Shown here: positions 1-42,240 of the stretch, piece by piece | How the letters are laid out: every line of letters starts with the position of its first letter | Numbering within the stretch: position 1 is the first letter of the stretch | Assembly: GCA_963808125.1 (NCBI GenBank) | Contig: CAWEEP010000074.1 | Span: forward strand, 116-64,115 | DNA length: 64,000 bases | From: Candidatus Dormiibacterota bacterium | GTDB taxonomy: Bacteria; Chloroflexota; Dormibacteria; Aeolococcales; Aeolococcaceae | Direction of reading: 5' to 3' | The notes under the pieces: generated by a model | Databases searched by the model: none | What the model was told of the DNA's origin: nothing | What the model saw: the letters and a program-made list of their open reading frames with translations, nothing else | Made by a program: the position numbers and the translations under genes

Positions 1-440
1 CGAAGGTGGAGAGAACGCCTTGCAGACGCTGGGGTATCCATTCGGTGAGCATGAGCACACCACCCACCGAGATGGGCGCGGCCAGAACAGATGGCGATCA
101 CCGAGGTGGTCAGCGTTCCGACGATAAAGACGAGCGCCCCGTACGAGGCGTCCTGCGGCGCCGACACGCCGTTGTGCGTGGTGAGGGTGTTGGCGTAGAG
201 GTGGCCGAGGGTGAAGGTGGTGCCGGTGAAGAAGGTGGTGCCGCTGTAGATGATCGCGGGGATGGCCTGCAGCACCATGACCACGATGATCAGCCCCAGC
301 GCGGCGACGGGGATCACCGCCGCCACGCCGGCCAGCCACTGGAAGACCCTGTCGCCGGCGCTGAACTCAGTGTTCCGAGCCCGGGAGGCCCGGGCCGGAC
401 CGGTGGGCGACCCACCGGCCCGGCGACGGACAAGGATCAT
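1..440 (-). CDS. pstC: phosphate ABC transporter permease PstC, N-terminal part only (runs off the window); one apparent frameshift near 85-100
   Basis: My own minus-strand translation from the ATG at 440 gives MILVRRRAGG...DRVFQWLAGVAAVIPVAALGLIIVVMVLQAIP...GALVFIVGTLTTSVIAI. After a 1-nt shift it continues LAAPISVGGVLMLTEWIPQRLQGVLSTF, which is typical PstC. The ATGA overlaps the pstS stop. The ORF is absent from the ORF track because it has no stop inside the window. Confidence 0.6.
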   Translation of the reverse strand, partial: MILVRRRAGGSPTGPARASRARNTEFSAGDRVFQWLAGVAAVIPVAALGLIIVVMVLQAIPAIIYSGTTFFTGTTFTLGHLYANTLTTHNGVSAPQDASYGALVFIVGTLTTSVIAICSGRAHLGGWCAHAHRMDTPASARRSLHL

Positions 441-1558
441 GGGGTCGTCAGGGCACGTAGATGGAGTGGATCGAACGTGACGTTGGGGATGACGCTGGTG
501 GGCAGCGCCACGAAGTTCTCCTTGGTCAGGTTGGCCGCGGTCGCGCCTCCGGTGGAGCTGATCGCCCAGGTGAGGAAGGTGCGCATGGCCAGAGCCGTCG
601 GCAGCGACGACTGGGCCTTGTGCAGCACCAGGTACTCGAAGTTGACGATGGGGTAGGAGTCGGCGCCGCTCTCGTAAATGAGCGACTGGCGCAGATCCTT
701 GGGCACGTCGGTGGCGCCGGCGGCCACCGCGGCGTTGATGTTGGTCGCCGTCGGGACTCGAAGTTGCGCCTGGTTCTGCAGGTTGGCTCTCCGAGACCGT
801 CAGTGATGGCCGTCGGCCTCGACGCTGATGCCGATGTAGGCGATGCAGCCCGCGGTGCTCTGGCAGGTGGTCACCATGGCGGGGTTGCCGCTGGCTGTCT
901 GCTCATTGCTCACCGACGGCCAGCTGACCGTCGTGCCGAAGTTCGGGCCGCTGACAACGTGGAGTTCGGCGCTGAGGAACGAGGTGAAGATGAAGGGTCC
1001 CGAGGTCCAAACGGCGCACCGGGACGATGGTCGTCGAGGGCAGGGTGAGCCGGGTTGAGGGCGGAGATCGCGAGTCGTTCCACTTGGTGATGCTGCCCTG
1101 GTAGATCTGGGCGATGATGTTGCCGCTCAGCTTGAGGTTGCTGATGCCCGGCAGGTTGTAGTGAACCGCCTGCGCGGAGACGGCGATGGGGGATGTGCAG
1201 GATGCCGGATACTTCGGTCTCGGCACCATTGCTCAGGTAGGCGTCGGAGCCGCCCATGTTGACGGCGCCCGTCTCGGCGTCACCTGACCCTTGCCCGAAC
1301 CGCCGGCGGCAGGGCTCAGGGTGATGTTGGGGTATGCCGTGTTCAGCGGCGTCTCCAGCTCCTCGAGGTAGGGGAGAGGAGGCTCGATCCGTCCTCGGTG
1401 AGGGTCACCGTGCTGGTCGGGTTGCCGGTCGCCACGGGCGTGGGTGTCGTGGTGGCGGTGGCGGCGGTGGTGCTGGAGTTGGACGCGCCACAGGCGCTCA
1501 CCAGCAGCGCACCCGCAACCGCCATCGTACTGACAGCCGTGATCCGTCGAATGTTCAT
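437..1558 (-). pseudogene. pstS: phosphate-binding lipoprotein PstS, broken into many frame fragments (about ten frame changes)
   Basis: N-terminal lipoprotein signal MNIRRITAVSTMAVAGALLVSACG (1343..1558). PstS-like blocks lie in alternating frames: PYLEELETPLNTAYPNITLSPAAGGSGKGQ, NMGGSDAYLSNG, IAVSAQAVHYNLPGISNLKLSGNIIAQIYQGSITKWND, FIFTSFLSAELHVVSGPNFGTTVSWP, NINAAVAAGATDVPKDLRQSLIYESGADSYPIVNFEYLVL (437..727). Confidence 0.8.
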
Positions 1559-1616
1559 GAACCTCCCCTTCAGATGGTTGGCGTTGAGACGGGAGATGAG
1601 GGCACGCCGCGCGTGC

Positions 1617-2429
1617 TCATCCGATCCGACCGCTGACGTAGGCCCGGCTCTTGGCGTTGGCCGGGTCGTGAAAGAATGTCCTCGCCGACGTCGCCTCGAC
1701 GAGCTCTCCCGCGGTGAGGAAGACGACGTCGTCGCTGATGCGATTGGCCTGCGCGAGATTGTGGGTGACGATCAGAACCGTGATGCGTTCCGAGATCCGC
1801 TTGATCAGTTCCTCGATGCGCTCGGTGCTGTCCGGGTCGAGCGCCGAGGTGGGCTCGTCGAGGAGGAGCACGCTGGGCGACAGCGCCAGCGCCCGGGCCA
1901 GGCAGAGCAGCTGCTGCTGGCCCCCCGACAGGCCGAAGGGCGACGCATGGAGCCGGGAGGACACGGCCGCCCAGAGGCCCACCTCGGTGAGGCGCTGCTC
2001 GATCAGCTCCTGCACGTTGCGCCGGCTGACAATGCCGTGGGCGCGCGGCGCCAGGCCGACGTTCTCGCTGATGCTGCGAGGGAACGGGTTGGCGCGCTGG
2101 AAGAGCATGCCCACACGGCGCCGCACCTCCCGGACGTTGACGTCCGGGCCGTAGATGTTGACCCCCTCGACGACCACGGACCCCTTGACGCGCATGCCCT
2201 GGGTCTGGTCGTGCATCCGGTTGATGGAGCGAAGAAGGGTGGTCTTGCCGCAGCCGGTGGGGCCGACGATGGCGGTGACCCGGTTGGGGCGGAACGTCGT
2301 GGTGATGCCGGAGAGGAGGGTCTTGTCGCCGAAGCGGACCAAGAGGTCGCGGACCTCCACGCCCTCGGCCACCTCCTCCCCCGTCTGGGAGAAGGCCACG
2401 TTGGTGAGCTCCACGGACCTCGTGACCAC
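1617..2429 (-). CDS. pstB: phosphate ABC transporter ATP-binding protein PstB
   Basis: 270-aa intact ORF. Walker A GPTGCGKTT, signature LSGGQQQLLCLARAL, Walker B LLLDEPTSALD. PstB-specific C-terminus FHDPANAKSRAYVSGRIG. Confidence 0.93.
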   Translation of the reverse strand: MVTRSVELTNVAFSQTGEEVAEGVEVRDLLVRFGDKTLLSGITTTFRPNRVTAIVGPTGCGKTTLLRSINRMHDQTQGMRVKGSVVVEGVNIYGPDVNVREVRRRVGMLFQRANPFPRSISENVGLAPRAHGIVSRRNVQELIEQRLTEVGLWAAVSSRLHASPFGLSGGQQQLLCLARALALSPSVLLLDEPTSALDPDSTERIEELIKRISERITVLIVTHNLAQANRISDDVVFLTAGELVEATSARTFFHDPANAKSRAYVSGRIG

Positions 2430-2474
2430 GGATCGAGCGTAGGGGTCGCTGTTTTGTGGGCGGGTTGCCCAAAG

Positions 2475-2491
2475 GTTAACGACCCGCTAAC
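2475..2491 (-). promoter_or_regulatory. candidate Pho-box-like direct repeat (GTTAAC N5 GCTAAC, 11-nt period) upstream of pstB
   Basis: Two 6-mers differing at one base, spaced exactly 11 nt centre to centre, about 45-60 nt upstream of the pstB start. PhoB/PhoP boxes are 11-nt-periodic direct repeats. This is a pattern match only. Confidence 0.25.
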
Positions 2492-2568
2492 TCGCCCCCC
2501 CGGTTGCACGTCCGTTCGCCACCCGCTGCCCGGCCCGCGGAACGTTCGGGAGGGGTGGGGCGGACCCC

Positions 2569-4300
2569 TCAGGAGGGTGGCGGGGAGGGCGCGGCGCTGG
2601 CGGCGGCGATCGCCTCGCGGACACCGTGGTGGATGTGGTCGGCGGCGATCAGGTCGAGGACGCCGTAGCGCTGGAGGACGTCCCGGATGTCCTCGACGTG
2701 GGCGAGGTGGACGTCGATGGCGCCGTGGCCGAGGTTGTGCAGGAGCGTCAGCAGCATCTGCCCGGCGGTGTAGTCGATGTCGGCGATTGCCGAGAAGTCG
2801 AACGCCACCCAGTACACCCGGTGGGGGGCCGCCTCCACCAGGCTGAGGACCCGGCCGCGGAAGTGTTCGGCGTTGGCGAAGAACAGGGTGCTGTCGAAGC
2901 GGTAGGCGACGCCGCCGGGCATGGTCTCCAGACCGGGCCGGGCTCGGTGCGGGACGAGCTGGCCCTCGGGGTCGGCGGCGGCCGACGATCACCGTGTCAC
3001 GCGGCCGGTAGGCGCGCCGCACGAAGTCGAGGACGGAGAGGCCGACGGCCAGGATGATGCCGGCCTCCACGCCGACGAGCACCACCATCAGGCCGGTGGC
3101 GACGGCGAGGGCGAACTCGTCGCGCCGCAGATGCCAGAGCTCGACGAGGTGGCGGCGGTCGATGAGGTGGACGCCGATGACGAAGACCACGGCGGCCAGG
3201 GTCGCCTCGGGGAGGTAGTGGAGGAGGCCGGTGGCGGCGACCAGGACGGCGATGGTGATGGCGCCCGCCACGAGCTGCGAGAGTTGGGTGCGCTGCCCGG
3301 CGGCGTCGACGACCGCCGTCTTGGTCGGGCTGCCGTTGACGCAGAAGGTGCCGGTCAGCCCGGCGACGAGGTTGGCACCGGCCAGCCCCACCAGGTCACG
3401 GTTCTCGTTGAGCTCCTCGCCGTGCTTCTGGGCAAAGCTGCGGGCTGTCGCGGCGCTCTGGGCGAGGACGACGACGAAGATCGACGCCGCGACGCCGGCC
3501 AGTCCGGGAACCTGCTGCCAGGCGACCTTGGGGAAGGTGATCGGTGGCAGCCCTCCCGGCACCGCGCCGATGATGGCGACGCCGTGCCGGTCCAGACGCA
3601 ACACCGCCGTCAGCACGATGGAGGCGGCGACGACCAGGAGGGCGCCCGGGACGCGCTTGGCGAAGGTCTCGATCAGCAGCAGCGCGCCCACCCCGGCGAT
3701 TGCCAGGAGGGCGGCAGGCACGACGATCTGCCCGGAGTGCCGTGCCAGCGTCGTGAGCTGGTCGATGAGGCTGCCGCTGGCGTGGATGCCCAGCATTCCC
3801 GGCAGCTGGGTGAGCGCGACCTGGATGCCGACACCGGTGAGAAAGCCGATGAGGGCGGTGCGCGACAGGAAGTCGGCGAGGAAGCCGAGGCGCAACAGCC
3901 GCGCCACCAGCAGGTATCCCGCCGCCATCAGAGCGACGATGCCGGCGAGGGCGACGTATTCCTTGCTCGCCGGTTTGGCCATCGTGACGAGAGCCGCGAA
4001 CATGATGGCGGCGGTCGCCGAATCGGCGCCGACGACGAGGTGGCGCGACGAGCCCAGGAGGGCGAAGACGATCGCCGGCACGGCCAGTGTGTAGATACCG
4101 GTGATCACCGGCATCCCCGCGATCTTGGTGTAGCCCATCGACTCGGGAATCGCCACCGCGGCCAGGGTGGCGCCGGCGATGACGTCGGCGACGAGGGTGG
4201 CGCGGCTCGAGCCGTTCATCCCCTGAGCCAGGCCGAGGATGCGGTCGGGCATTGACCGGTTCGGAGCGACCGGGGGGGTGTTTCTCACGGCGGCGCCCAC
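2569..4300 (-). CDS. SulP-family sulfate/anion permease with C-terminal STAS domain; one frameshift near 2980
   Basis: The first ~440 aa of ORF 2003..4300 show a SulP membrane core (AIPESMGYTKIAGMPVITGIYT, GANLVAGLTGTFCVNGSPTKTAV). The STAS domain lies in ORF 2569..2922 (GGVAYRFDSTLFFANAEHF...FDFSAIADIDYTAGQML). The two frames join at RDTVI/AAADPEGQLV. Confidence 0.85.
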
Positions 4301-4376: not shown

Positions 4377-4748
4377 TCAGACGAGGCGGCAGGGGACGTC
4401 GGCGTCCTCGTCCAGGTGGTAGCTGGCGCAGACGCGGTGGTAGCCGTCGGCGATGGTCAGAGGGAAGTCCTTACCCAGGTCCCCGCGCACCAGCAGCACC
4501 GGGGAGAGCAACGACCCCTTCTCGACCTTGCCCAGATCCTTCTTGACGTGAGCGTTCTCGGCGGGGAGGAGGGGAAGGCCGCTGGCCCGGAGCAGATCCT
4601 TGGCCTTGCGGTGGGTGAGGGGGGCGGCCCTCAGCTTCGTCACCAGGTCGCGGGCGGCGCTCTCGTCGGTGATGAGGCTGAGGTAGTCCGTTGCGGCGGG
4701 AAAATCGTGGTCGTCCGGGGTGCTCTTCCAGTGTTCCCTGGTCGTCAT
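4377..4748 (-). CDS. hypothetical protein, possible ParB/sulfiredoxin-like fold (DGYHR motif)
   Basis: The internal start MTTREHWKST of ORF 4377..5009 has strong third-position G/C. The motif LTIADGYHRVCASY resembles the DGxHR core of ParB/Srx-fold proteins. The upstream part of the track ORF is low complexity. Confidence 0.45.
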   Translation of the reverse strand: MTTREHWKSTPDDHDFPAATDYLSLITDESAARDLVTKLRAAPLTHRKAKDLLRASGLPLLPAENAHVKKDLGKVEKGSLLSPVLLVRGDLGKDFPLTIADGYHRVCASYHLDEDADVPCRLV

Positions 4749-4842
4749 GTGGTGGCTCCCCTGCGAACTGGGCCCGGTATCAGCAACCGGATCTGGCCTC
4801 GAATGGTAGGCATTCCCGGTCCCGACCGCCGCTCTGCCGCGA

Positions 4843-6432
4843 CTAGTTCTTGACGAAGATGACGGCGAAGCCGTCGTCATAGACGCGGGTCCACTGCGGG
4901 TCCACGGTGAGCGCCATGGTGAGCGAGGAGTCGGTCCGCTCGACGACGTAGTCCACCCGGTTGCTGGCCAGGATCTGCTGCCAGTCTGGCTCCGCGTTCT
5001 CGACGTCACTGATCTCCTGCACCAGGTTGTTGCCCATCAGTGTGGCCTCGCCATAGATGAAGACGCGGCGGTCGGTCAGAGGGACGTCGCCGTTGCTGGA
5101 GGGGGAGAAGCGGTAGGCGAGGTAGCCGCCCCAGTCGTAGGCGTTGAACATCCGGGTGCCCACATCGGGGTGCGCCGCCAGCCAGCTGGCCGCCCCCTCT
5201 GGGAAGTTGGCCCGGGTGCTCGCCGCCTGACCCTGGAGGGTGTCCACGACGACGGCACCGGTCACCGCCACGGAGAGCATCAGGGCGAACGTCGCCAGGG
5301 CGGTGAGGTCCTGCCGGCGCCGGCCGGTGTAGGCGGCGAACCGCGGCTGCCAGGTGCTGGCGGCCCAGCCGGCTCCCAGTCCCCAGGCGATGACCGGGAC
5401 GACCGCGCAGACGGCGATGGCGCCGTTGCGCACTGCGGCGAGGGCGAGGACGATGCTCGCCGTGGCCACGCAGACGTCCCAGAGGCGCTGCCGCCGCGCG
5501 GCCACTGCCCAGACGGTGAAGAGGAGCATCAGCCCCAGCCCCCACTCCTCGGGCGAGTGGAAGTTGGGCGACTTCCACTCGGCGATGAAGCCCTGCTGCG
5601 CCGAGCTGAACTGGATGTGCAGGGGGATGAGATAGACGCTGATGGTGTGCGGGTTGATCAGTGCCGTCAGGAAGGAGGCGCCGAGCACCACCCACAGGCC
5701 CAGCGCGCGCCGCCGCGACTCCGCCTTCTCACCGGTGAACGCCCAGCGGGCCGATTCGGTGACGGCGGCGAGACCGACGAAGAACAGGCCGTAGACGAAC
5801 CCACCGTGCAGGTTCGCCCAGATCACCATCACGGCCGGCAGCCAGAAGAGGCGGTGGCTGCGATCGCGTAGGTACGCCTCGATCCAGTAGAGGGTCAGGC
5901 CGAGGAGGGCGAAGCTGATCATCTGCGACCGCGGCCCCCAGACTGCGACGCCCGCCGCCGCTCCGACCAAGAGGCAGACGGCGGCGATGACCGGCGGCGT
6001 GCGCTCCAGGGCGATACGCCGCCAGATCAGCCACATGCCGGTCCAGATCACCGCCGTGTAGACGAGGCTGACGGCGAGGAAGCTGCCGGCGCGGAAGACG
6101 AGGGCGAGGAGGATCTCGCTGCCCCACTCCTGGTCGGCCCACGAGTGGCCGCTCACCGTGTAGGTGAAGAGGTCGTGGGAGGGGAGTGCCCCGTGGCTGA
6201 GCATCCACTGCCCGGTCGCCAGGTGCCAGTAGAAGTCGGGGTCGCCGACCCTTCGGCAGATCACCACCAGCACCCCGATCAACGCCGCAGCGACGATGAG
6301 GCCGCCGATACCTGGGCGGCGGATGCGTCCCCAGAGCTTCGCCGCGGTGGGGGCGCCCTCTCGTGCGGGGGCGGCGGTGATCACGGACGGAGTGACGCCA
6401 CCCTCTGTGGCGGGCTCCTCTGCTGGCGCCAT
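4843..6432 (-). CDS. polytopic membrane protein, GT-C-type glycosyltransferase-like
   Basis: 529-aa intact ORF with many TM segments. N-terminal DPDFYWHLATGQWM, loop WANLHGGFVYG, and a soluble C-terminal domain. The architecture is typical of uncharacterised GT-C/ArnT-like enzymes. Confidence 0.6.
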   Translation of the reverse strand: MAPAEEPATEGGVTPSVITAAPAREGAPTAAKLWGRIRRPGIGGLIVAAALIGVLVVICRRVGDPDFYWHLATGQWMLSHGALPSHDLFTYTVSGHSWADQEWGSEILLALVFRAGSFLAVSLVYTAVIWTGMWLIWRRIALERTPPVIAAVCLLVGAAAGVAVWGPRSQMISFALLGLTLYWIEAYLRDRSHRLFWLPAVMVIWANLHGGFVYGLFFVGLAAVTESARWAFTGEKAESRRRALGLWVVLGASFLTALINPHTISVYLIPLHIQFSSAQQGFIAEWKSPNFHSPEEWGLGLMLLFTVWAVAARRQRLWDVCVATASIVLALAAVRNGAIAVCAVVPVIAWGLGAGWAASTWQPRFAAYTGRRRQDLTALATFALMLSVAVTGAVVVDTLQGQAASTRANFPEGAASWLAAHPDVGTRMFNAYDWGGYLAYRFSPSSNGDVPLTDRRVFIYGEATLMGNNLVQEISDVENAEPDWQQILASNRVDYVVERTDSSLTMALTVDPQWTRVYDDGFAVIFVKN

Positions 6433-6673: not shown

Positions 6674-8323
6674 GTGCCCGGCACGGAGGCGACGGAGGAC
6701 GCGGTGGGACTGTCCGGAAGCCCGGGCACGCACGATGCAGCCGCCCCGGGGCGCCATCCCCCCCCCACCTCCCGGGGCGAGGGTCCGGCGGCGTCTGGCG
6801 CGGGAGGCTGGTTCCGCCGATGGCTGTGGTTCATCGGGCCCACCGCGGTCTATTGCGTCCTTCGAATCCCCTCGTTCTTCGAGCCCCACTGGTACACGGA
6901 CGAGGCGGGCTACGTCGCCACTGCCCGCTCCATGCTGCAAGGGAAGACCCTCTACGCCCAGATCTGGAACAACAAGCCACCCCTGCACTTGTGGACCGTC
7001 GCCATCCTCATCAAGTTCTTCGGCACGAGCGAGGCGGCGCTCCACTCGCTGACCTTCGTCAGCGGGCTCCTCACCCTCGCCGCCGTCGCCTACGCCTGCG
7101 ACAAGGTCCTCGGACGCCGCCGCACTGCCTTCGCGCTCCTGCTCACGGCCGTGCTCCTGGGGACGCCGATCCTCGATGCGGAGCTGCTCATCCCCGAGAG
7201 CCTGCTCATCGCCCCCGTCACCTGGGCCGGGGCGATCCTCCTCCGGCGGTTCGCCGAGCCGGACGCGCGGGCCTGGCCCCGCTGGCCCGTCGCGGTGGGA
7301 GCGCTCGTGGCCGTCGCCATCGCCTACCAGCAGACCGCGCTGGCGGAGGCCTGCGCCTTCGGTTTCATCCTGCTCGTCACCTCGCGAGGCAACTGGCGGC
7401 GCTTCACCGCCTACGCCGCCACCGTGGCGGCGCTGACCGCCGCATGGCTGATCCCAACCGCGGTCTCCGTCGGGGCGTCCACCGTCGCCTACGCCCTCGC
7501 CGGGTTCTACGTCCATTTCACCCAGGGCAACTGGGACGGGCCGGTCGGCGTCCTTCTGCATCTGGTCGCCATCGTCGCCGCCTTCTGCCTGCTGGTTGTC
7601 TGCGCTTGGTTCCGCCGGCATGATCGGGACCCGGCCTGGGCACTCTGGTTCTGGTCGGGCGCCGCCCTCCTCGTCCCCTTCATCGCTCGCCAGCCCTATC
7701 CCCACTACCTGCTCCCCTCCGCGGTGCCGGTGACCATGGCCGTGTGTAGCCTCCGCTCCGTCCGCAGCTGGGGCGTCAGCCTGACCCAGAGGCTCACCGC
7801 CGCCGGGCTCCTCGCCGCGACCGCCCTGGTCATCCCGGCCGCCGCCATCACCGGGTTCAACTGGATCCCGTGGCCGGGGATCTCGACGCTGAGCCTGGCT
7901 ACCTACTACGGCGGCGCCGTCCTCGTGGCCACCGGCGCGCAATCGGACCAGTCCTGGCAGAACGAGTTCGACGCGAGGGTCCCAGAGGATCGGGCTGCCG
8001 CCTCGTGGATCACCAACCACGGGCTCGAGGGCACCTCCGCCGTCATCTGGTCGGCCGACGTCTGGCTCTACACCATCGATGACTTCAGCGTGATCATGCC
8101 GACCCCTCCCATCTACAACGATGCGGTGCTGCTGGGCAGCTGGGACGCGACGGCTCAGCGCATCGCCGCCCTCGATCCCGTGATCGTGGTCACCGAGGGG
8201 ACGACGATCTCGGCCTACCCGCAGATCCAGCCCCTTCTCACGAGCGCCTACCAGGCCTGTGAGCAGAACGGCTCCGAGATCGTGTGGGTGCGGAACGACA
8301 TCGCGCGGGCGCTGCCCGGCTGA
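6674..8323 (+). CDS. ArnT/PMT-like (GT39/GT83-type) membrane glycosyltransferase
   Basis: 549-aa ORF. It has EPHWYTDEAGYVATARSM near the first loop, an Asp/Glu-containing motif typical of GT-C enzymes, and more than 10 TM segments. The start is uncertain: a C10 tract at 6768..6777 lies between candidate starts. Confidence 0.65.
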   Translation: MPGTEATEDAVGLSGSPGTHDAAAPGRHPPPTSRGEGPAASGAGGWFRRWLWFIGPTAVYCVLRIPSFFEPHWYTDEAGYVATARSMLQGKTLYAQIWNNKPPLHLWTVAILIKFFGTSEAALHSLTFVSGLLTLAAVAYACDKVLGRRRTAFALLLTAVLLGTPILDAELLIPESLLIAPVTWAGAILLRRFAEPDARAWPRWPVAVGALVAVAIAYQQTALAEACAFGFILLVTSRGNWRRFTAYAATVAALTAAWLIPTAVSVGASTVAYALAGFYVHFTQGNWDGPVGVLLHLVAIVAAFCLLVVCAWFRRHDRDPAWALWFWSGAALLVPFIARQPYPHYLLPSAVPVTMAVCSLRSVRSWGVSLTQRLTAAGLLAATALVIPAAAITGFNWIPWPGISTLSLATYYGGAVLVATGAQSDQSWQNEFDARVPEDRAAASWITNHGLEGTSAVIWSADVWLYTIDDFSVIMPTPPIYNDAVLLGSWDATAQRIAALDPVIVVTEGTTISAYPQIQPLLTSAYQACEQNGSEIVWVRNDIARALPG

Positions 8324-34955: not shown

Positions 34956-35246
34956 ATGTCCTGGCGTGGCCGGCTCTTCGGTTCGAGCCCACCGCTGCAC
35001 CCCAACAGCGTGGTCATCGCCGACGACGTGGTGGCGGCGCTGACCGCCTCGGGGGTTCCACTCGGCGAGGCCGTCGATGCGACCCTGCGGAGCCACCTGG
35101 AGGCGGCGCGGCGGGCTGGCGAGGCACAGGCCCGAGGCGAGAAGATCCCCTTCTGGTTGGGCCGGGAGGAGGGCGCCTCCGGCGAGATCGAGGATACCCT
35201 GCGCGACCGCATCAGCCAGCGCCGGGCCAGCGAGGAAGACCACTGA
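34956..35246 (+). CDS. hypothetical small protein
   Basis: Internal ATG of track ORF 34905..35246. Strong third-position G/C. SVVIADDVVAALTASGVPLGEAVDATLRSHLE may be RHH-like. Divergent from otsA. Confidence 0.45.
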   Translation: MSWRGRLFGSSPPLHPNSVVIADDVVAALTASGVPLGEAVDATLRSHLEAARRAGEAQARGEKIPFWLGREEGASGEIEDTLRDRISQRRASEEDH

Positions 35247-35271
35247 TCTCGTGCCCGGACCGCCGTCGCCG

Positions 35272-36292
35272 ATGACCTCACCGGAGCTGGGCCGCCTGCT
35301 CCGGCGCTTGGGGGCAGCACTGGCCGGGCTTGTCGTGCTGCTGGCCTACGGCACGGCCGGTTACGCCCTGGTCGAGCGCTACAGCCCCCTCCAGGCCCTC
35401 TTCATGACGGTGATCACCATCAGCACCGTTGGCTACCAGGAGGTACGCCCGCTGCACCCCGGCGGCGAGGTGCTGACCATGACCGTCATCGCCTTCGGGG
35501 TGATCGATTTCCTTTACACCTTTGGCATCCTCGTCGAGCTAATGTCGAGCGGCGAGTGGCAGCGCTACTGGAGGACGCGTCGAGTGGAGCGCCGTCTGTC
35601 GGATATGGCCGACCACGTCATCGTCTGCGGCTACGGCCGCACCGGCCGCCAGGTGGTCAGCGAGCTGATCCAGTCAAAGGAGCCCTTCGTCGTCGTCGAG
35701 TGGCACCAGGATGGGCTCGCCAACGTCGAGCAGGACCAAGTTCTCCATGTCATCGGTGACGCCGCCGACAACTCCGTCCTGGAGCGCGCCGGCATCCGGC
35801 GCGCCCGGGCGCTGGTCAGCGCCGTGGACTCCGACGAGAGCAACGTGTACATCGTGCTCACCGCGCGATCAATCAATCCCCGGCTCTACATCGTCGCCCG
35901 GTCGTCGCATCCCGAACTCGCTGGAGAAGATGCGGCGGGCCGGCGCTGACCGGGTGGTCAGCCCCTACACCCTGAGCGGGCGCCGGATGGCGGCCCTGGC
36001 CATGCAGCCGGCGGTGGTGGACACCTTCGACCTCCTCACCGGGGGGACCGACACGCCGATGCGGGTCGAGGAGCTCGTCGTCAGCGCCGAGGGCGCGCCG
36101 GGGCTCACCGCCCGCGACCTGCGCCACTCCGGCGCCGTCCTGCTGGCGCTCCGCTCCAGCGACGGGGTGCTGCGCGTCGGCCCCGGCGACGACGAGAGGC
36201 TCGCCGTCGACGACATCCTCGTGGCCATGGGCACCAGCGAGCAACTCGCCAGGCTGGCGGTGGCGATGCGGCCCGCCGCGACACACCCCTGA
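35272..36292 (+). CDS. two-TM potassium-channel-family protein with RCK (TrkA-N/TrkA-C) domain; frameshift near 35915; pore signature reads TVGYQE
   Basis: Pore region FMTVITISTVGYQE; Rossmann motif VIVCGYGRTGRQV; then, after a 1-nt shift (ORF 35711..36292), NSLEKMRRAGADRVVSPY and a TrkA-C-like end. Confidence 0.8.
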
Positions 36293-36326
36293 GGACGACC
36301 GGCCCGGCGGGCGGGCGCCCAGGATG

Positions 36327-37487
36327 TCAGTGGATGAGCTGCTCCATCTCGGCCAGCGCCGCGGCCCGCTCCGGATCGTCGAAGGCGTGCCGCGCCGGCT
36401 CCAGCCGGTCGATGAGCCGGTCGGCCAGCGCCGTCTTGGCGTCCATGGGGTGGAGGGCTCCCGAGGCGTAGGCCTGGCGAACCTCGTCGATGGCGTGGAA
36501 GGTGACCGGGCCGCCGTTCTCCGCCGTGCGCCCCACGTGGAGCTCCGCATCCCCGAGGCCGAAGCAGAGCTTGGCGATCCAGTCGATGATCGGGTTGAGC
36601 TCCACCTCTCCCGGAGGGCAGAAGGCGCCGCGCACCTTGCGGCGGATCTCGTCGGGGAAGTCGTGGAGGAAGACCGCCGACTTCGGATTCGACTTGCTCA
36701 TCTTCATGGCCGCGAGCGCGTCGGCGCGCTCCTCTGGAGGAACCGGCCAGCGGTCCGGCTTGAGTAGCCCGGTGAGCAGTGGGCTGTGCGCCGCCAGCGG
36801 CTTGATGGCGGTGCCGGCGGCGTCGCGCAGAGTGTTGACCCTGATCTTGGTGGCCACGTCGCGCGCGACCACGTGGGCCTTGCGCTGGTCCATCCCGGCG
36901 TGGGCGATGTGGACCCCGAGGGCGAAGATGTCGGCCGCCTGCATCGCCGGGTAGATGAGCTTGGCGAAGTCGTGCTGCTCCCCCTCCTTGCGGCCGAGGA
37001 TGGTGATGCTCCGCTGCATCCGGGCCAGCGAGGTGTGCTTGGCGACATCGATCACCGTGGCCCAGTAGTCGCGCGCGGGGTCGGCATAGACATCCGAGGC
37101 GAGGATGAGGCGAAGCGCCCCCGGGTCGCCGCCGACGCAGAGCAGCGAGGCCTTCATCGCCTCGCCGTAGTAGGAGACGGCGAGCCGCCGGATTCGATCG
37201 CGATCACCGCCCAGCTTGTCGTTGATCCAGGTGTGCCAGTCGGCGAGGAGGACGCTGCAGTCGACGCCCGCCTCCTGGAAGTCGCGGACCTTGGCCATCA
37301 ACACCAGTCCGCCGCCCAGGTGGACCCGTCCGGAGATCTCGTAGCCGATGTAGTGGCGGATGGGCCCGCCGCCCGCCAGCAGGGCCAGGAGCTCCTCGTG
37401 GGTGAGCAGCTCGGCCAGATTGCGCTCGATCAGCGCCGCCCGTCGGGCGGTGGAATCGGCGGCGGGGGAGGGGGGGAGTGGGGTCAT
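36327..37487 (-). CDS. tyrS: tyrosyl-tRNA synthetase, archaeal/eukaryal type
   Basis: 386 aa from the ATG at 37487; the track start at 37559 lies inside the tRNA gene. Collinear with M. jannaschii TyrRS as I recall it. IERNLAELLTHEELLALL, HYIGYEISGRVHLGG (Tyr32 equivalent and HIGH region), LLADWH, YPAMQAADI (Gln/Asp tyrosine-binding pair), GMDQRK, KMSKS, AFCPPGEVELNPIIDWIAKL, GALHPMDAKTALADRLIDRLEPAR. There is no bacterial S4-like C-terminal domain. Confidence 0.85.
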   Translation of the reverse strand: MTPLPPSPAADSTARRAALIERNLAELLTHEELLALLAGGGPIRHYIGYEISGRVHLGGGLVLMAKVRDFQEAGVDCSVLLADWHTWINDKLGGDRDRIRRLAVSYYGEAMKASLLCVGGDPGALRLILASDVYADPARDYWATVIDVAKHTSLARMQRSITILGRKEGEQHDFAKLIYPAMQAADIFALGVHIAHAGMDQRKAHVVARDVATKIRVNTLRDAAGTAIKPLAAHSPLLTGLLKPDRWPVPPEERADALAAMKMSKSNPKSAVFLHDFPDEIRRKVRGAFCPPGEVELNPIIDWIAKLCFGLGDAELHVGRTAENGGPVTFHAIDEVRQAYASGALHPMDAKTALADRLIDRLEPARHAFDDPERAAALAEMEQLIH

Positions 37488-37496
37488 GGGTGGGGA

Positions 37497-37518
37497 CCGG
37501 GCGGTCGGGACCGCCCGG
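37497..37518 (-). terminator. strong GC hairpin (CCGGGCGGTC-GG-GACCGCCCGG) in the 45-nt spacer between tRNA-Tyr and tyrS; terminator, attenuator or processing signal
   Basis: Perfect 10-nt inverted repeat (effectively 9 bp plus a 4-nt loop). No U-tract. Confidence 0.35.
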
Positions 37519-37532
37519 GCGGGAAGTCGGCC

Positions 37533-37608
37533 TGGTCCCAGGGGGTGGACTCGAACCACCGATACACGGTTTTACAGACCGCTGCCTTGGCCACTTGGCT
37601 ACCCTGGG
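37533..37608 (-). tRNA. tRNA-Tyr (anticodon GUA), class I architecture (5-nt variable loop), C1:G72, A73, CCA encoded
   Basis: Reverse complement CCCAGGGTAGCCAAGTGGCCAAGGCAGCGGTCTGTAAAACCGTGTATCGGTGGTTCGAGTCCACCCCCTGGGACCA. Acceptor CCCAGGG/CCCTGGG, D-arm GCC(A)-AGTGGCCA-(A)GGC, anticodon arm GCGGT-CTGTAAA-ACCGT, variable GTATC, T-arm GGTGG-TTCGAGT-CCACC. Confidence 0.9.
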
Positions 37609-37756
37609 ATGCCCTGCGCAGCATAAAGGCTCGGCGAACGGGCAAGCGGCCGCCGGCCGGCCCGTCTCCGGCGCTGGTGAGTGGCCCCGCCCGGCGATCC
37701 GCGGGCCCCCGACCCGTTGGCCGCCGACCCGGGCGGTGGGGTTTGCCACCCGGTCC

Positions 37757-37785
37757 TTGCATCCGGCCAACGTATAACGTATCCT
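37757..37785 (+). promoter_or_regulatory. candidate sigma-70-type promoter TTGCAT-N17-TATCCT for the arsR-ino1 operon, overlapping a tandem heptamer AACGTAT AACGTAT (37769..37782)
   Basis: The hexamers and 17-nt spacing were read directly. The site lies about 18 nt upstream of the ArsR ATG in the only AT-rich stretch of this intergenic region. Confidence 0.35.
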
Positions 37786-37802
37786 TTATTCAAGGCATCT
37801 TT

Positions 37803-38219
37803 ATGAAAGAGTCCGTTATGCGTCCCCATTCGCCGCGGCGGGCCGTCCCCGGGGCCATTGCCGCCGGGGCTTTCGACCTCTCCGTGCACTTCGAAGGGCT
37901 GGCCAACCCGACGCGCCTCGCGGTCGTCGAGGTGCTCGCCAGAGGCGGTGAGGTGAGGGTCTCCGAGCTCGCTGAGCTCTGCAAGGTCAGCCAGCCGCGG
38001 ATGAGCTGGCACCTGCGCATCCTCCGCCACGCCCAGGTGGTCTCCACCCGGCCGGAGGGGCGCGAGGTCTTCTGCCGGCTCGACCGCGAATCCATCGCCC
38101 GCCACCTGCAGAGCTTCGTCCAGATCCTCGGCCGCGACACCGGCGACACCGGTGGCTTTGCCGAGCTGAACCGGTCCATAGAGGCGTCGCTGACGCCCAT
38201 CAGTGAGGGAATGCCGTGA
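37803..38219 (+). CDS. ArsR/SmtB-family transcriptional regulator
   Basis: [62 protein letters not shown] is an ArsR wHTH. Its stop overlaps the ino1 GTG (GTGA). Confidence 0.85.
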
Positions 38220-39376
38220 GCGACAAGGTCCGTGTGGCCATCATCGGGGTGGGCAACTGCGCCTCATCCCTGGTCCAGGGTGTCGAGTATTACAAGGACG
38301 CGGACCCGGAGACCATGGTCCCCGGGCTGATGCACGTCAATCTCGGCGGCTACCACATCTCCGATATCGAGTTCTCCGCCGCCGTCGACATCGACGTCGA
38401 GAAGGTGGGCAAGGACCTCAGCGAGGCCATCTTCAGCGGTCAGAACAACACGGTGAAGTTCTCCGACGTGCCCACCAAGGGGATCAAGGTGGTCCGCGGC
38501 ATGACCCATGACGGCCTCGGCAAGTACCTGAAGGAGGTCATCGTCAAGGCGCCCGGTCCCACCGCCGACATCGTCGGCATCCTCAAGGACACCGGCACCG
38601 ACGTCGTCGTCAACTACCTCCCCGTGGGCAGCGAGGAGGCCACCAAGTGGTACACCGAGCAGATTCTCGCCGCCGGCTGCGCGATGGTCAACTGCATGCC
38701 CGTCTTCATCGCTCGTGAGGACTACTGGCAGGAGCGCTTCCGCAAGGCCGGCGTCCCCGTCATCGGCGACGACATCAAGTCACAGGTGGGCGCCACCATC
38801 GTGCACCGCGTTCTCACCCGGCTCTTCCGCGACCGCGGCGTCGAGATCGAGCGGATGTACCAGCTCAACTTCGGCGGCAACACGGACTTTCTCAACATGC
38901 TGGAGCGCGAGCGTCTGGTCAGCAAGAAGATCAGCAAGACCAACAGCGTCCGCTCCCAGCTCAACCAGCCGCTCGCCGACCGCAACATCCACATCGGCCC
39001 CTCCGACTACGTGCCCTGGCTCAACGACCGCAAGTGGTGCTACATCCGCATGGAAGGCAAGTCCTTCGGCGACGTGCCCATCAATGTCGAACTGAAACTC
39101 GAGGTCCACAACTCGCCCAACAGCGCGGGCATCGTCATCGACGCCGTCCGCTGCTGCAAGCTGGGCCTGGATCGCGGCCTCTCGGGCACGCTGGAAGGAC
39201 CCGCCTCCTACTTCATGAAGTCGCCACCCAAGCAGTACTCCGACAGCGTCGCCCGCGACCTGACCGAGGCCTTCATCGCCGGGGGACCGTCCACGGTGGG
39301 CAACGGCCACTCCCGGGCGGCGGCCCGCCAGTCGGCCTCGCCGAAGACGGCCACATCCGACCCAACAGTCGGCTAA
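38216..39376 (+). CDS. ino1: myo-inositol-1-phosphate synthase
   Basis: [93 protein letters not shown]. Confidence 0.92.
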
Positions 39377-39481
39377 CCTCCTCACCGTGTCCAGTGCCCT
39401 GCGCCGGCCGCCCGGCGGCGGATCGAGGTTCCGGGCGCCCGGGCGGGCGCCCGGAACTCGTCGCCGCATCCCGGAGCCGGC

Positions 39482-40477
39482 GTGACGGGGGGCCCCACCC
39501 CCGGCCGGAGCGGGCCCCCGGTGCCGCTAGTCGTCGCCACCCACGGCGACGACGGTTCGATGCTGCCCTACTACGGCTACCGTGTCGCCGAGGCCCTGGT
39601 CAGGGTCCTGCACCGCCGCGCCGCCTACGTTCTGGGGGTGGCCTGCGCCGACACGGTGCGCCTGGTCCGCCCAGGCTCGGTGCGGGCGCTGCGCTGGAAT
39701 CTCTCGCACGTGCTCCCCGGCGCCAGCCCCCGCGAGTTGCGCAGGGTGGTCCGCAAGAATCTGCGCGACCAGGCGCGCTTCTGGGTCGACGTCATCAGCA
39801 TGCGCTTCGAGGGCGAGGGCATCCGCGGGGGGCTCACCGTCGGGGAAGGCGGGCGGGAGCGATACCAGGCGGCGCTGGCAACCGGGAGAGGCGTCGCCGT
39901 CATCTCCCTGCACCTCGGCAGCTGGGAGCGGGGGCTCGCCGCCGGCAACAATCTCGGCTACCCGCTGGCCCTGCTCGCCGAGTACATGAGGCCGCGCAAG
40001 CTCTTCGACCGGGTGGTGGGCGCTCGAGTGGCGCAGGGCGTCCACGTCGTCCCCATCGACATCGCCGGCATCCGCATTGCCGACGAGGCCACCGCCCGGC
40101 GGCTCGGCGCGGCGGCCATGCGGGACGTGTTCCGCATCCTCAAGAGCGGCGGTGCCATCGCCCTGGCCATGGACCGCGACCTCATCGGCAACGGCGAGCT
40201 CTATCCGTTCTTCGGCGCCCCGGCACCCATTCCGGTCGGGGTCGTCGACGCTGCCATGCGGGCGGGATCGATCGTCATGCCTGTCTTCCTTCCCCGCATC
40301 CCGGGTGGGGTGGAGGTCCACATCGGCCCGGAGATCCCCTATGACGCCGCCGCCCCCCACGCCGACGAGGTCCACCGCGTGGTGATGGAGATCCTCGCCG
40401 TCTTCGAGAAGGTGATCGGCGACCATCCCGAGCAGTGGCACGTCCTCGATCCCATCTGGGAGATGCCGGAAGGATGA
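39482..40477 (+). CDS. lysophospholipid/lauroyl acyltransferase family protein (PIM acyltransferase PatA-like by context)
   Basis: VISLHLGSWERG (HX4D-type region; here H..E), AMDRD, and the position between ino1 and pimA. The start is uncertain (GTG at 39482 or ATG at 39560). Confidence 0.65.
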   Translation: MTGGPTPGRSGPPVPLVVATHGDDGSMLPYYGYRVAEALVRVLHRRAAYVLGVACADTVRLVRPGSVRALRWNLSHVLPGASPRELRRVVRKNLRDQARFWVDVISMRFEGEGIRGGLTVGEGGRERYQAALATGRGVAVISLHLGSWERGLAAGNNLGYPLALLAEYMRPRKLFDRVVGARVAQGVHVVPIDIAGIRIADEATARRLGAAAMRDVFRILKSGGAIALAMDRDLIGNGELYPFFGAPAPIPVGVVDAAMRAGSIVMPVFLPRIPGGVEVHIGPEIPYDAAAPHADEVHRVVMEILAVFEKVIGDHPEQWHVLDPIWEMPEG

Positions 40478-41626
40478 GGATCTGCCTCGTCTCCCCTTAC
40501 GACTTCGTCCACCCGGGCGGGGTCACCGAGCACGTCCGCCACCTCGCCGACGAGCTCCGCCGCCGCGGCCACGAGGTCACCATCCTGGCGCCATCGTCGA
40601 GCGTCCCCGACGATCACGGCATCCCCGGCTACGTCCGCATCGGCCGCAGCGTCCCGGTGCGCAGCAACGGTTCGGTGGCCCGCCTCGCCCTCTCCTTCCA
40701 CCTGGTGCGGAGGGTGCGCTCGCTGCTCAGCAAGTCGGACTTCGACGTCGTCCACTACCACGAGCCGCTGGTGCCCGGGTTGCCCCTCACCACCCTGCGC
40801 TTCCATCGCGGCGTCAACGTCGCCACCTTCCACGCCAGCGCCCGGCGCAACCTCGGCTACTACTACGGCCGCCCCGTGCTGCGCCGCTACTTCAATCGCC
40901 TACACGCCTGCATCTGTGTCAGCGAGGCGGCGCGTGAGTTCATCGCCCAGTACTTCGACGGGGACTTCACCATCGTTCCCAACGGCATCGACGGGACGCG
41001 CTTCCACCCCGACCTCCCCATCGTCCCAGAGCTGCGCACCGAGGGCAAGGCCACCATCCTCTTCGTCGGCCGCATGGAGCACCGCAAGGGGCTCCCCGTC
41101 CTTCTCGACGCCTACGCCCGGCTCCGCCGCGAGCGGGCCGACTGCCGGCTGGTCATCGTCGGCGACGGTCCGATGCGCTGGGCGTACGAGCAGCAGTGCG
41201 AGGCCAAGGGCGTCCCCGACGTCGCCTTCCTAGGCCACGTGTCCGCCGCCATGCTGCCCCGCATCTACGCCAGCTCGGACATCTTCTGCACCCCGGCGTC
41301 GGGAGGGGAGAGCTTCGGCATCGTCCTCCTCGAGGCGATGGCCAGCGGCGTGCCGGTGCTGGCCTCGGCCATCCCGGGTTTCGCCCAGGTGGTGGAGTCG
41401 GGCAGCGACGGCAGGCTCGTCCCACCCCGCCAGCCCGAGGCCTGGTCGCGCGAGATCGCCGCCCTTCTCGACGACCCCGAGCTGCGGCGGAGCATGGGTC
41501 GCAACGGCATCGCCAAGGCGCGGCGCTACGACTGGAGCGTCGTTGTCGAACTCCATCCTCGACGTGTACGACCTGGCGCAGCAGCGGTCGCAGGCCCACC
41601 TGGTCGCGGCGAGCACCGCGACGTGA
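40474..41626 (+). CDS. pimA: GT4 glycosyltransferase, phosphatidylinositol alpha-mannosyltransferase PimA-like; 1-nt insertion near 41545
   Basis: MRICLVSPYDFVHPGGVTEHV, FVGRMEHRKGL, ESFGIVLLEAMASGVPVLAS. The C-terminus YDWSVV|SNSILDVYDLA is recovered by removing one G. The ATG overlaps the preceding stop (ATGA). The alternative end is 41637 in the track frame. Confidence 0.85.
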
Positions 41627-41636
41627 GCGGCGCCTG

Positions 41637-42240
41637 ATGTTCACCCAGCGCATCCAGGACTGGGTGCGGGCCCGTGCCCGTGGGCTCGTCACCTTCCTCC
41701 ATCTGCGGCGCGTCTCCCCCAACACCCTCACCATGACGGGTCTCGTCGTCACCGTCGGCGCGGCCGTCCTCATCGGCGTCGGATGGCTCATCGCGGGCGG
41801 CGTCGTCCTGCTCTTGGCCGGGCTCTTCGACATCCTCGACGGCGCCGTCGCCCGCGTCACCCACCGCGTGCAGAAGTACGGCGCGTTCCTCGAACTCGAC
41901 GACCGACCGCTACAGCGAGGCCGTCACCTACATCGCCCTCCTCTATCACTTCGTCTCCCGGGCGGGCAACCAGGTGCCGGCGATGCTCGTCATCGTCGCC
42001 CTCAGCGGATCGCTGCTCGTCTCCTACGTCCGGGCGCGCGCTCAGTCACTGGGTTTCGTCTGTGACGGCGGCGTGCTGGCCCGGCCCGAGCGCGTCGTCA
42101 TCACCGTCGCCGGCTTGATCGTCCCCGTGCTGCTCGTCCCCGCCCTCTGGGTGCTGGCGGTGCTCACCAACGTCACCGCCCTGCAGCGCATCTGGTTCGT
42201 CTGGCGCCAAGCGCGCCACGCCGCCCCGGCCGACGTCTGA
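41637..42240 (+). CDS. pgsA: CDP-alcohol phosphatidyltransferase (phosphatidylinositol-phosphate synthase-like); 1-nt insertion near 41893
   Basis: PNTLTMTGL, the DILDGAVAR ... GAFLD|STTDRYSEAV signature (DG-x2-AR...G-x3-D-x3-D), restored by removing one A. The C-terminal TMs lie in ORF 41974..42240. Confidence 0.82.

Follow-up and report, generated by a model that had tools for sequence, protein, structure and literature searches.

Introduction

How tRNA-Tyr is recognised by its tyrosyl-tRNA synthetase (TyrRS) follows a textbook divide between the domains of life, in that the bacterial tRNA has a G1:C72 first pair and a long variable arm and the archaeal tRNA has C1:G72 and a short arm. The same divide is what makes possible the orthogonal pair that genetic-code expansion uses most widely. 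A 2026 paper repeats the rule that bacterial tRNA-Tyr is type II. The natural breach published so far comes only from the candidate phyla radiation (CPR), in which Mukai, Reynolds, Crnkovic and Soll (2017, Life 7:8; PMC5370408) describe archaeal-rule tyrosine pairs in OD1, OP11, WS6 and WWE3 with enzymes derived from DPANN archaea; the C1:G72 tRNA-Tyr of these lineages are there said to be of bacterial or archaeal origin and to occur with and without a variable arm. The reduced, DPANN-episymbiotic lifestyle of such organisms has made this exception easy to dismiss. The present analysis concerns a stretch of 64,000 nucleotides (the window; contig CAWEEP010000074.1 of assembly GCA_963808125.1, positions 116 to 64,115 of the forward strand) from a Candidatus Dormiibacterota bacterium, in which an archaeal-type TyrRS is encoded directly downstream of a class-I tRNA-Tyr(GUA). 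This pair is probably the working tyrosine-charging system of this bacterium, in which an enzyme of DPANN origin and a remodelled tRNA, joined in one transcription unit, would rely on archaeal-type recognition.

The tRNA-Tyr of the window

The two genes that make up the pair are the following.

37533..37608, minus strand: tRNA-Tyr(GUA), class I, 76 nt including the encoded CCA (ARAGORN and Rfam)
36327..37487, minus strand: archaeal-type TyrRS (long Pyrococcus/DPANN type), 386 amino acids, without an S4-like C-terminal domain (NF006330, PF00579, 2cyc)

Of the two tRNAs that ARAGORN reports for the window, that at 37533..37608 (minus strand) is tRNA-Tyr(gta); the Rfam model RF00005 matches it with 65.1 bits (E=2.6e-13) and is covered end to end. 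The full sequence of this tRNA is CCCAGGGTAGCCAAGTGGCCAAGGCAGCGGTCTGTAAAACCGTGTATCGGTGGTTCGAGTCCACCCCCTGGGACCA, and by segment it reads CCCAGGG-TA-GCCAAGTGGCCAAGGC-A-GCGGT-CTGTAAA-ACCGT-GTATC-GGTGG-TTCGAGT-CCACC-CCCTGGG-A-CCA. It has a C1:G72 first pair, A73, an encoded CCA, a 5-nt variable loop (GTATC), A37 and a D stem of 3 bp in which A13 and A22 are unpaired. The archaeal/eukaryal tRNA-Tyr identity set (C1:G72, A73, GUA and a short variable loop) is complete. An initial annotation, made from the sequence alone, had described a cloverleaf tRNA-Tyr(GUA) with C1:G72, A73 and a 5-nt loop, and ARAGORN and Rfam agree with it; another isotype or a long variable arm, which that annotation had also considered, is contradicted by both the covariance model and ARAGORN, which give a class-I tRNA-Tyr.

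The synthetase and its recognition residues

The reading frame of the TyrRS is open from a GTG at 37559, and the actual start is the ATG at 37487, with which homologues align from residue 1. From this start the protein has 386 amino acids, is identical in length and sequence to the database protein P0001, and ends with a stop codon whose last nucleotide is 36327. The gene lies on the strand of the tRNA after a spacer of exactly 45 nt, as first annotated, and all five peptide blocks that had been quoted for it are present. Pfam finds PF00579 alone (residues 41-362) and no S4 domain in the 386-residue protein, in agreement with the earlier claim that a bacterial S4-like C-terminal domain is missing. 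The NCBIfam model NF006330 (PRK08560, tyrosine--tRNA ligase), which we take to be the archaeal-type TyrRS model, matches residues 14-380 with 382 bits against a cutoff of 220. The bacterial tyrS model TIGR00234 reaches 100.3 bits, below its cutoff of 113.8, and matches only the N-terminal half; the trpS model TIGR00233 reaches 81 bits (cutoff 176.75), and the remaining TrpRS models stay far under their cutoffs. The closest solved structure is the TyrRS of Pyrococcus horikoshii (2cyc, E=5.7e-114), followed by 7fg6 and the Aeropyrum enzyme 2cya, with weaker matches to M. jannaschii (about 1e-43) and to the bacterial enzyme of T. thermophilus (1h3e, 1.2e-7). Profile scores, structure matches and the tree described below thus all place the enzyme outside TrpRS and bacterial TyrS/TyrZ, with which the initial annotation had allowed that it might cluster. 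That annotation had also called the synthetase collinear with a Methanocaldococcus-type TyrRS; the archaeal type holds, and the short Methanocaldococcus type does not, as alignment gives 51% identity to P. horikoshii and 39% to M. jannaschii and the enzyme is of the long Pyrococcus/DPANN type.

Residue equivalences were taken from an alignment to the M. jannaschii TyrRS (MjaTyrRS) sequence, which is 100% identical to 1j1u_A, and conservation was scored over 81 enzymes. The following residues are invariant in 81 of 81 (for the first signature, this holds for H, L and G).

37311..37322, minus strand: HIGH-type signature HLGG, residues 56-59
36690..36704, minus strand: KMSKS signature, residues 262-266
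37350-37352, minus strand: codon of Tyr46, equivalent to MjaTyrRS Tyr32
36930..36932, minus strand: Asp186, equivalent to MjaTyrRS Asp158
36441..36443, minus strand: Asp349, equivalent to MjaTyrRS Asp286
37011..37013, minus strand: Arg159, equivalent to MjaTyrRS Arg132 (water-mediated C1 contact, PMC1934993)
36879..36884, minus strand: Arg202-Lys203, equivalent to MjaTyrRS Arg174 (C1) and Lys175 (G72) (PMC1934993)

The tyrosine-binding residues as a group (Y46, Q183, D186 and Q201, corresponding to Y32, Q155, D158 and Q173 of the M. jannaschii enzyme) are likewise invariant in all 81 enzymes, as are the equivalents of H283 and K288. Asp158 and Tyr32 of MjaTyrRS presumably bind the tyrosine hydroxyl, and Asp286 is assumed to be the reader of G34 in the anticodon. 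In the structure of MjaTyrRS described by Tsunoda et al. (PMC1934993), C1 is read by Arg132 and Arg174 and G72 by Lys175. By analogy, C1:G72 of the window tRNA would be read by Arg159, Arg202 and Lys203, A73 by the backbone near Leu237 and G34 by Asp349; the S4 domain, which the enzyme lacks, would not be needed for recognition.

Integrity of the locus

Such a gene in a bacterial contig could in principle be an archaeal fragment that was mis-assembled or mis-binned, and nothing favors this explanation except the unusual type of the gene. The GC content is about 70% and flat across the locus, and the GC content at third codon positions (GC3) of the TyrRS gene is 0.93, similar to that of its neighbors (0.86-0.93) and unlike that of its DPANN relatives (0.21-0.31). 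The genes on both sides of the tRNA-TyrRS pair are bacterial, as had been noted for the surroundings in the window, and include a GT20 glycosyltransferase, a TrkA-type K+ channel, an ArsR regulator, an inositol-1-phosphate synthase, an acyltransferase, a GT4 glycosyltransferase and holB. More specifically, the order GT4, acyltransferase, inositol-1-phosphate synthase and ArsR, then tRNA-TyrRS, then TrkA and GT20, is found again in about 20 independent metagenome-assembled genomes (MAGs), and TyrRS relatives are also encoded in closed chromosomes. Close homologues, which share 75-90% of their residues with the enzyme, belong to MAGs that carry the name Candidatus Dormibacteria or Dormibacterota. 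Uniform GC, matching GC3 and conserved flanks led us to reject chimerism and contamination, a chimeric contig being a concern raised at the outset, and an artefact of this kind is exceedingly improbable.

Origin of the enzyme

Bootstrapped neighbor-joining trees were used to trace the origin of the TyrRS. In a first tree of 50%-identity representatives the bacterial enzymes formed a monophyletic clade (99%) whose sister group was not resolved. Clustering at 50% identity had merged DPANN relatives into the cluster of the query clade, and a second search was made with a Chloroflexota enzyme; it recovered 64-67% identical TyrRSs named Pacearchaeota, Woesearchaeota and Nanoarchaeota. In the rebuilt tree the bacterial clade received 98% bootstrap support, the Dormibacterota 100%, and a group of the bacterial clade with the Pacearchaeota, Woesearchaeota and Nanoarchaeota enzymes 91%. 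Judged by the names of the homologues, the bacterial clade consists of Dormibacterota and Dehalococcoidia-like Chloroflexota, and a CPR cluster with a Daviesbacteria enzyme (P0124) is placed elsewhere in the tree. The contigs that carry the DPANN enzymes have an archaeal gene context (S6e, Cdc6/Orc1, RtcB with archease, NOG1 and TrmB).

The simplest reading of this topology is a single ancient transfer, in which a Pacearchaeota/Woesearchaeota-like DPANN archaeon would have passed its TyrRS, an archaeal enzyme of the long type, to an ancestor of the Dormibacterota and of some Dehalococcoidia-like Chloroflexota. An ancient date is suggested by the GC3 of the gene, which resembles that of its neighbors and not that of the DPANN genes, and the tree position makes the transfer independent of the CPR lineage sampled here, namely the Daviesbacteria cluster. 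A plasmid or phage vehicle was considered and rejected, the only matches being two TyrRSs on haloarchaeal megaplasmids (~30% identity) and none in phages. In one contig whose enzyme (P0315) is basal in the bacterial TyrRS clade, positions 1-4000 of the locus (L157) have 49% GC and the sequence beyond has 67-70%; this low-GC start may be an island or an assembly join.

Distribution and linkage of the two genes

In a scan of one genome per GTDB species, relatives of the TyrRS are encoded in 262 species-representative genomes. The best 80 of these 262 were analyzed as loci and are Dormibacterota and Chloroflexota, among them closed chromosomes of 3.2-4.4 Mb. Closed chromosomes of the two groups include OY970307.1 and OY970355.1 (Dormibacterota) and OY759972.1, OZ243944.1, OZ244848.1 and OZ250185.1 (Chloroflexota). 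In 25 of the 80 genome loci the TyrRS has a tRNA-Tyr(GTA) directly upstream, on its own strand. When metagenomes were scanned with the anticodon-arm and variable-loop core of the tRNA-Tyr as query, 63 more tRNA-Tyr genes came up; the TyrRS follows 27 of them, 32 are on their own and the remaining 4 sit at contig ends. Several of the stand-alone copies still adjoin the cluster of ArsR and inositol-1-phosphate synthase genes.

Together the 88 tRNA-Tyr genes represent 23 distinct sequences, none of which departs from C1:G72, A73 and a variable loop of 5 nt. Over 22 distinct variants, 95% of the cells of the cloverleaf are paired, and none of 500 shuffles is as good. Compensatory changes occur at 9 pairs, for example C-G/U-A at 3:70, A-U/G-C at 4:69 and C-G/A-U/G-C at 50:64. 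Pairing and compensation beyond that of the shuffles indicate that these tRNA-Tyr genes are functional and under selection.

Linkage of tRNA and synthetase occurs in four of the six main Dormibacterota branches (the clade of the window, L022, L024/25 and L062), including the most basal one. The common ancestor of the phylum therefore probably had this arrangement already, and at least two losses followed. In the Chloroflexota members of the clade the tRNA-Tyr is not linked to the TyrRS. A subgroup of these (L046, L048, L051, L057, L063, L069 and L074) has a divergent tRNA-Gln(TTG) about 250-450 nt upstream of the TyrRS, and at 370-463 (minus strand) of locus L070 ARAGORN reports a 94-nt 'tRNA-Arg(gcg)', unusually long for a tRNA-Arg.

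In the unlinked Dormibacterota groups the TyrRS is convergent with another class-Ic synthetase gene, which is found in 43 loci (e.g. L028, 7129-8304, minus strand; L029, 7122-8123, minus strand). This open reading frame (ORF) was suspected to encode a bacterial TyrRS and proved to be a bacterial TrpRS (TIGR00233, 311 bits), so that the tryptophan system remains bacterial. Some of these TrpRS copies have PDFGLHLG or PTFQLHLG instead of the usual PSGxLHxG.

Breakup of the linkage is visible in individual loci. A close relative of the window locus, L010 (CAZUDL010000017.1), has flanks that are 90-98% identical to those of the window and a TyrRS that is only 84% identical. An insertion of 1.4 kb (4573-6001) begins 8 nt past the 3' end of its tRNA-Tyr, and directly upstream of the TyrRS, at about 5905-5950, the 3' half of the tRNA is present a second time in decayed form. 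This arrangement suggests integration into the tRNA gene, possibly with allelic replacement of the TyrRS. The insertion carries a reverse-strand ORF of 239 amino acids that, by eye only, is methyltransferase-like. Half-tRNA-Tyr fragments are also found near the TyrRS in L016 (2142-2186, 3' half, 91%) and L019 (2834-2872, 5' half, 90%), and the tRNA-Tyr gene appears to be a recurrent hotspot of rearrangement or integration.

Origin of the tRNA

A 3-bp D stem with 13:22 unpaired, together with A37, is a hallmark of bacterial class-II tRNA-Tyr; in archaeal tRNA-Tyr, G37 is expected. The pair 13:22 is unpaired in 21 of 21 Dormibacterota variants. The closest PLSDB match to the 5' half of the window tRNA is the class-II tRNA-Tyr of Nonomuraea gerenzanensis, which has 83 nt, G1:C72 and a 13-nt arm. 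Over the D arm and anticodon arm the window tRNA is identical to this tRNA at 31 of 35 positions, compared with 21 of 35 for M. jannaschii, whose tRNA backbone agrees with the engineered o-tRNA given in PMC3675464. In the anticodon stem-loop the match to Nonomuraea is complete, at 17 of 17. Within a small comparator set, the window tRNA thus does not have an archaeal-style body, by which is meant a 4-bp D stem and arms nearer to archaeal tRNA-Tyr. C1:G72 and A73 are known to suffice for archaeal tyrosine identity on an unrelated bacterial chassis (PMC7590224), which makes it plausible that the identity set was installed on a resident tRNA.

From the bacterial-like D and anticodon arms, the 3-bp D stem and A37, we infer that the tRNA is a native bacterial tRNA that was remodelled and not imported. 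The class-II tRNA-Tyr of the host would have been refitted by flipping the first pair to C1:G72 and cutting the long variable arm to 5 nt, and its bacterial D arm, A37 and anticodon arm would have been retained.

Alternatively, the tRNA and the TyrRS may have come jointly from an archaeon as a cassette, of which the linkage seen today would be the original arrangement. The spread of the linkage over the Dormibacterota tree, which makes it probably ancestral to the phylum, and the tRNA remnants upstream of the TyrRS in L010 and L016, which mark once-intact linkages, are in keeping with such an import. However, the resemblance of the tRNA body to bacterial class-II tRNA-Tyr speaks against it, as does the lack of linkage in the Chloroflexota members of the clade. 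In addition, no tRNA-Tyr was found within 10 kb of the TyrRS in the DPANN loci examined (L084, L086-L087 and L158). An 88-nt tRNA in the Woesearchaeota locus L086 was considered and rejected as a tRNA-Tyr, because it is an intron-containing tRNA of another kind; this archaeal tRNA (L086/L087, 15012-15099, minus strand; Rfam 54 bits) has an 18-nt insertion in the anticodon loop and is left unnamed by ARAGORN. The class-II-like body of the tRNA and the unlinked DPANN loci make joint import very unlikely. Of the two origins proposed at first annotation, a co-acquired unit or a lineage-specific replacement of the bacterial decoding pair, the former is thus disfavored, and the latter is supported by an enzyme that is phylum-wide, vertically patterned and fully ameliorated.

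Transcription of the pair

Two further features bear on the expression of the tRNA and its synthetase.

37488..37532, minus strand: tRNA-to-ORF spacer, 45 nt, with no terminator, Shine-Dalgarno-like GGAGG or recognised RNA family
37620..37625, minus strand: putative -10 box TATGCT, 11 nt upstream of the tRNA 5' end, from an alignment of the upstream regions of 22 loci

Relatives have TATCCT at the identical distance from the tRNA, and TANNNT is conserved exactly 11 nt upstream in the clade of the window. The spacers are typically 45-72 nt long and shrink to 9-28 nt in the deep lineages L020, L022 and L025, where there is no room for a separate promoter; no intrinsic terminator was detected at the locus. 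Because the spacers are short, no terminator is detected and the upstream box is conserved, tRNA-Tyr and TyrRS are likely to be co-transcribed and then processed. In the lineage of the window the two genes would form a single transcription unit, driven by a promoter some 11 nt upstream of the tRNA. RNase P and 3' processing would free the tRNA from the tRNA-mRNA precursor, and the TyrRS mRNA that remains would have a leader of very few nucleotides.

Two other candidates for a function of the spacer were rejected. Its GC-rich hairpins are no more stable than those of dinucleotide shuffles (8 spacers, z -1.5 to +0.8; window z=-1.07), which leaves no structured element, and a T-box or riboswitch is excluded by Rfam, which reports nothing but the tRNA in 36000-38300 and, over the entire window, no more than two tRNAs.

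A primary or an auxiliary tyrosine system

The phylum-wide vertical inheritance of the enzyme, the strict conservation of its residues and its housekeeping codon usage argue that the archaeal-type pair is the primary tyrosine system of its hosts. A different view is that it coexists with a bacterial TyrRS and a class-II tRNA-Tyr and serves a side role in inhibitor resistance, stress or specialised decoding. A precedent of this kind is the archaeal-type TrpRS-A, which coexists with a bacterial TrpRS in CPR according to Mukai et al. (PMC5370408). No second TyrRS was found in 1.01 Mb around the loci, and this span sets the reach of the search, which leaves some room for an auxiliary role. Against such a role, the TyrRS tree mirrors taxonomy, with the Dormibacterota at 100% and the Chloroflexota groups separate, and both the catalytic and the tRNA-reading residues are strictly conserved in a gene with housekeeping-like codon usage. 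The tRNA-Tyr genes recovered with the anticodon-arm and variable-loop core are all class I, although the query included the short loop. Finally, the surroundings offer no biosynthetic or resistance context, the nearby genes encoding inositol-phosphate synthase, glycosyltransferases and a K+ channel, joined in 43 loci by a bacterial TrpRS. An auxiliary pair is therefore unlikely.

Several observations weigh against a primary, remodelled and co-transcribed pair. The tRNA comparators are few, with one tool-verified actinobacterial, one engineered M. jannaschii-derived and two further sequences. Remodelling may also not hold for the whole clade, as the D stem is of the ordinary 4-bp form in L039, the sole tRNA-Tyr seen from Chloroflexota. 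Branching between Chloroflexota and Dormibacterota is weakly supported (7-37%), and all trees are neighbor-joining trees. A scan for the sigma-70 consensus found no promoter at the locus, and the check for a bacterial pair spans the 1.01 Mb mentioned above. In addition, Phe261 of MjaTyrRS, which we take to stack on G34, is retained in Pyrococcus and replaced by Asn in the bacterial clade (75 of 81 enzymes; Asn324 in the window, codon 36516-36518). This Asn may reflect altered anticodon handling or a local shift of the alignment.

With these points taken into account, the evidence leans modestly toward a broader form of the argument for a primary system. The whole of the Dormibacterota and part of the Chloroflexota would have switched permanently to the archaeal tyrosine rule, the bacterial TyrRS would have been lost, the class-II tRNA converted, and the 5' end of the synthetase mRNA would now be created by tRNA processing.

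Neighboring genes

Downstream of the TyrRS, the TrkA-type K+ channel gene of the window (35077-36292, plus strand) is split over two frames (35077-35949 and 35711-36292). It is intact in the close relative L010, as one ORF of 346 amino acids (7193..8233), and occupies a single frame in L001. The split in the window is either a frameshift or pseudogene or an assembly error. On the other side of the pair, positions 37806-41637 (plus strand) encode the ArsR-family regulator followed by the inositol-1-phosphate synthase, a lipid-A-type acyltransferase and the GT4 glycosyltransferase. These genes look like a phosphatidylinositol-mannoside-type cluster and adjoin the tRNA in many Dormibacterota.

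Comparison with known systems

The initial annotation left open whether the pair had already been described. The principle was published for CPR in 2017 (PMC5370408), and the Dormibacterota case was not found in the literature; no paper tying Dormibacterota or Chloroflexota to an archaeal-type TyrRS came up in a search that covered literature outside subscription-only sources. As in CPR, an archaea/eukarya-type TyrRS derived from DPANN and a C1:G72 tRNA-Tyr are found in a bacterial genome. Unlike CPR, the hosts here are free-living soil and peat Dormibacterota and Dehalococcoidia-like Chloroflexota, the trait is fixed phylum-wide, and the TyrRS clade stands apart from the one sampled CPR cluster (Daviesbacteria P0124). 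Stordalen and SPRUCE are among the sampling sites of the MAGs. Furthermore, the tRNA-Tyr lies directly upstream of the TyrRS, whereas for CPR PMC5370408 reports such an operon of tRNA-Trp and TrpRS-A. What is new here is thus that an independent transfer reached a major phylum of free-living bacteria, that the class-I tRNA has an apparently bacterial scaffold, and that tRNA and synthetase form a putative operon, the principle itself being known from CPR. If the reading given here is true, it amounts to a second, independent, phylum-wide breach in abundant soil and peat bacteria, and the identity rule would not be domain-bound even in ordinary genomes.

The enzyme shares with the P. horikoshii (2cyc) and M. 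jannaschii (1j1u) TyrRSs the fold family, the residues that contact C1:G72 and tyrosine, and the absence of an S4 domain. It differs from them in overall sequence (51% and 39% identity, respectively), in an N-terminal extension of roughly 20 residues, in the Asn that takes the place of the G34-stacking Phe261, and in being encoded by a gene of 70% GC.

Engineered systems offer another point of reference. In E. coli, TyrRS and tRNA-Tyr have been replaced by the M. jannaschii pair (refs 17-18 as cited in PMC5370408), and C1:G72 with A73 has been installed on a bacterial chassis in synthetic tyrosine tRNAs (PMC7590224). The Dormibacterota resemble the former in being bacteria that would translate tyrosine codons by an archaeal-rule pair, and their tRNA resembles the latter in placing the identity set on a non-archaeal tRNA body. 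Unlike either of these, the present case is natural, ancient and phylum-wide, and its chassis is apparently the native tRNA-Tyr minus its long arm. If so, the lineage would have repeated, in nature and independently, the laboratory replacement by the M. jannaschii pair, and its tRNA body, which would have lost the arm and reversed the first pair, would provide a natural, intermediate-free example of a tRNA class change. It would also be a source of high-GC TyrRS/tRNA pairs that are orthogonal in E. coli and already fitted to bacterial RNase P, modification enzymes, EF-Tu and ribosomes.

With respect to gene arrangement, the closest parallels are pylT-pylS and tRNA-Trp(A73)/TrpRS-A, in which a tRNA gene likewise adjoins the gene of its cognate synthetase. 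Those pairs are accessory, whereas the pair described here is apparently primary and serves a canonical amino acid.

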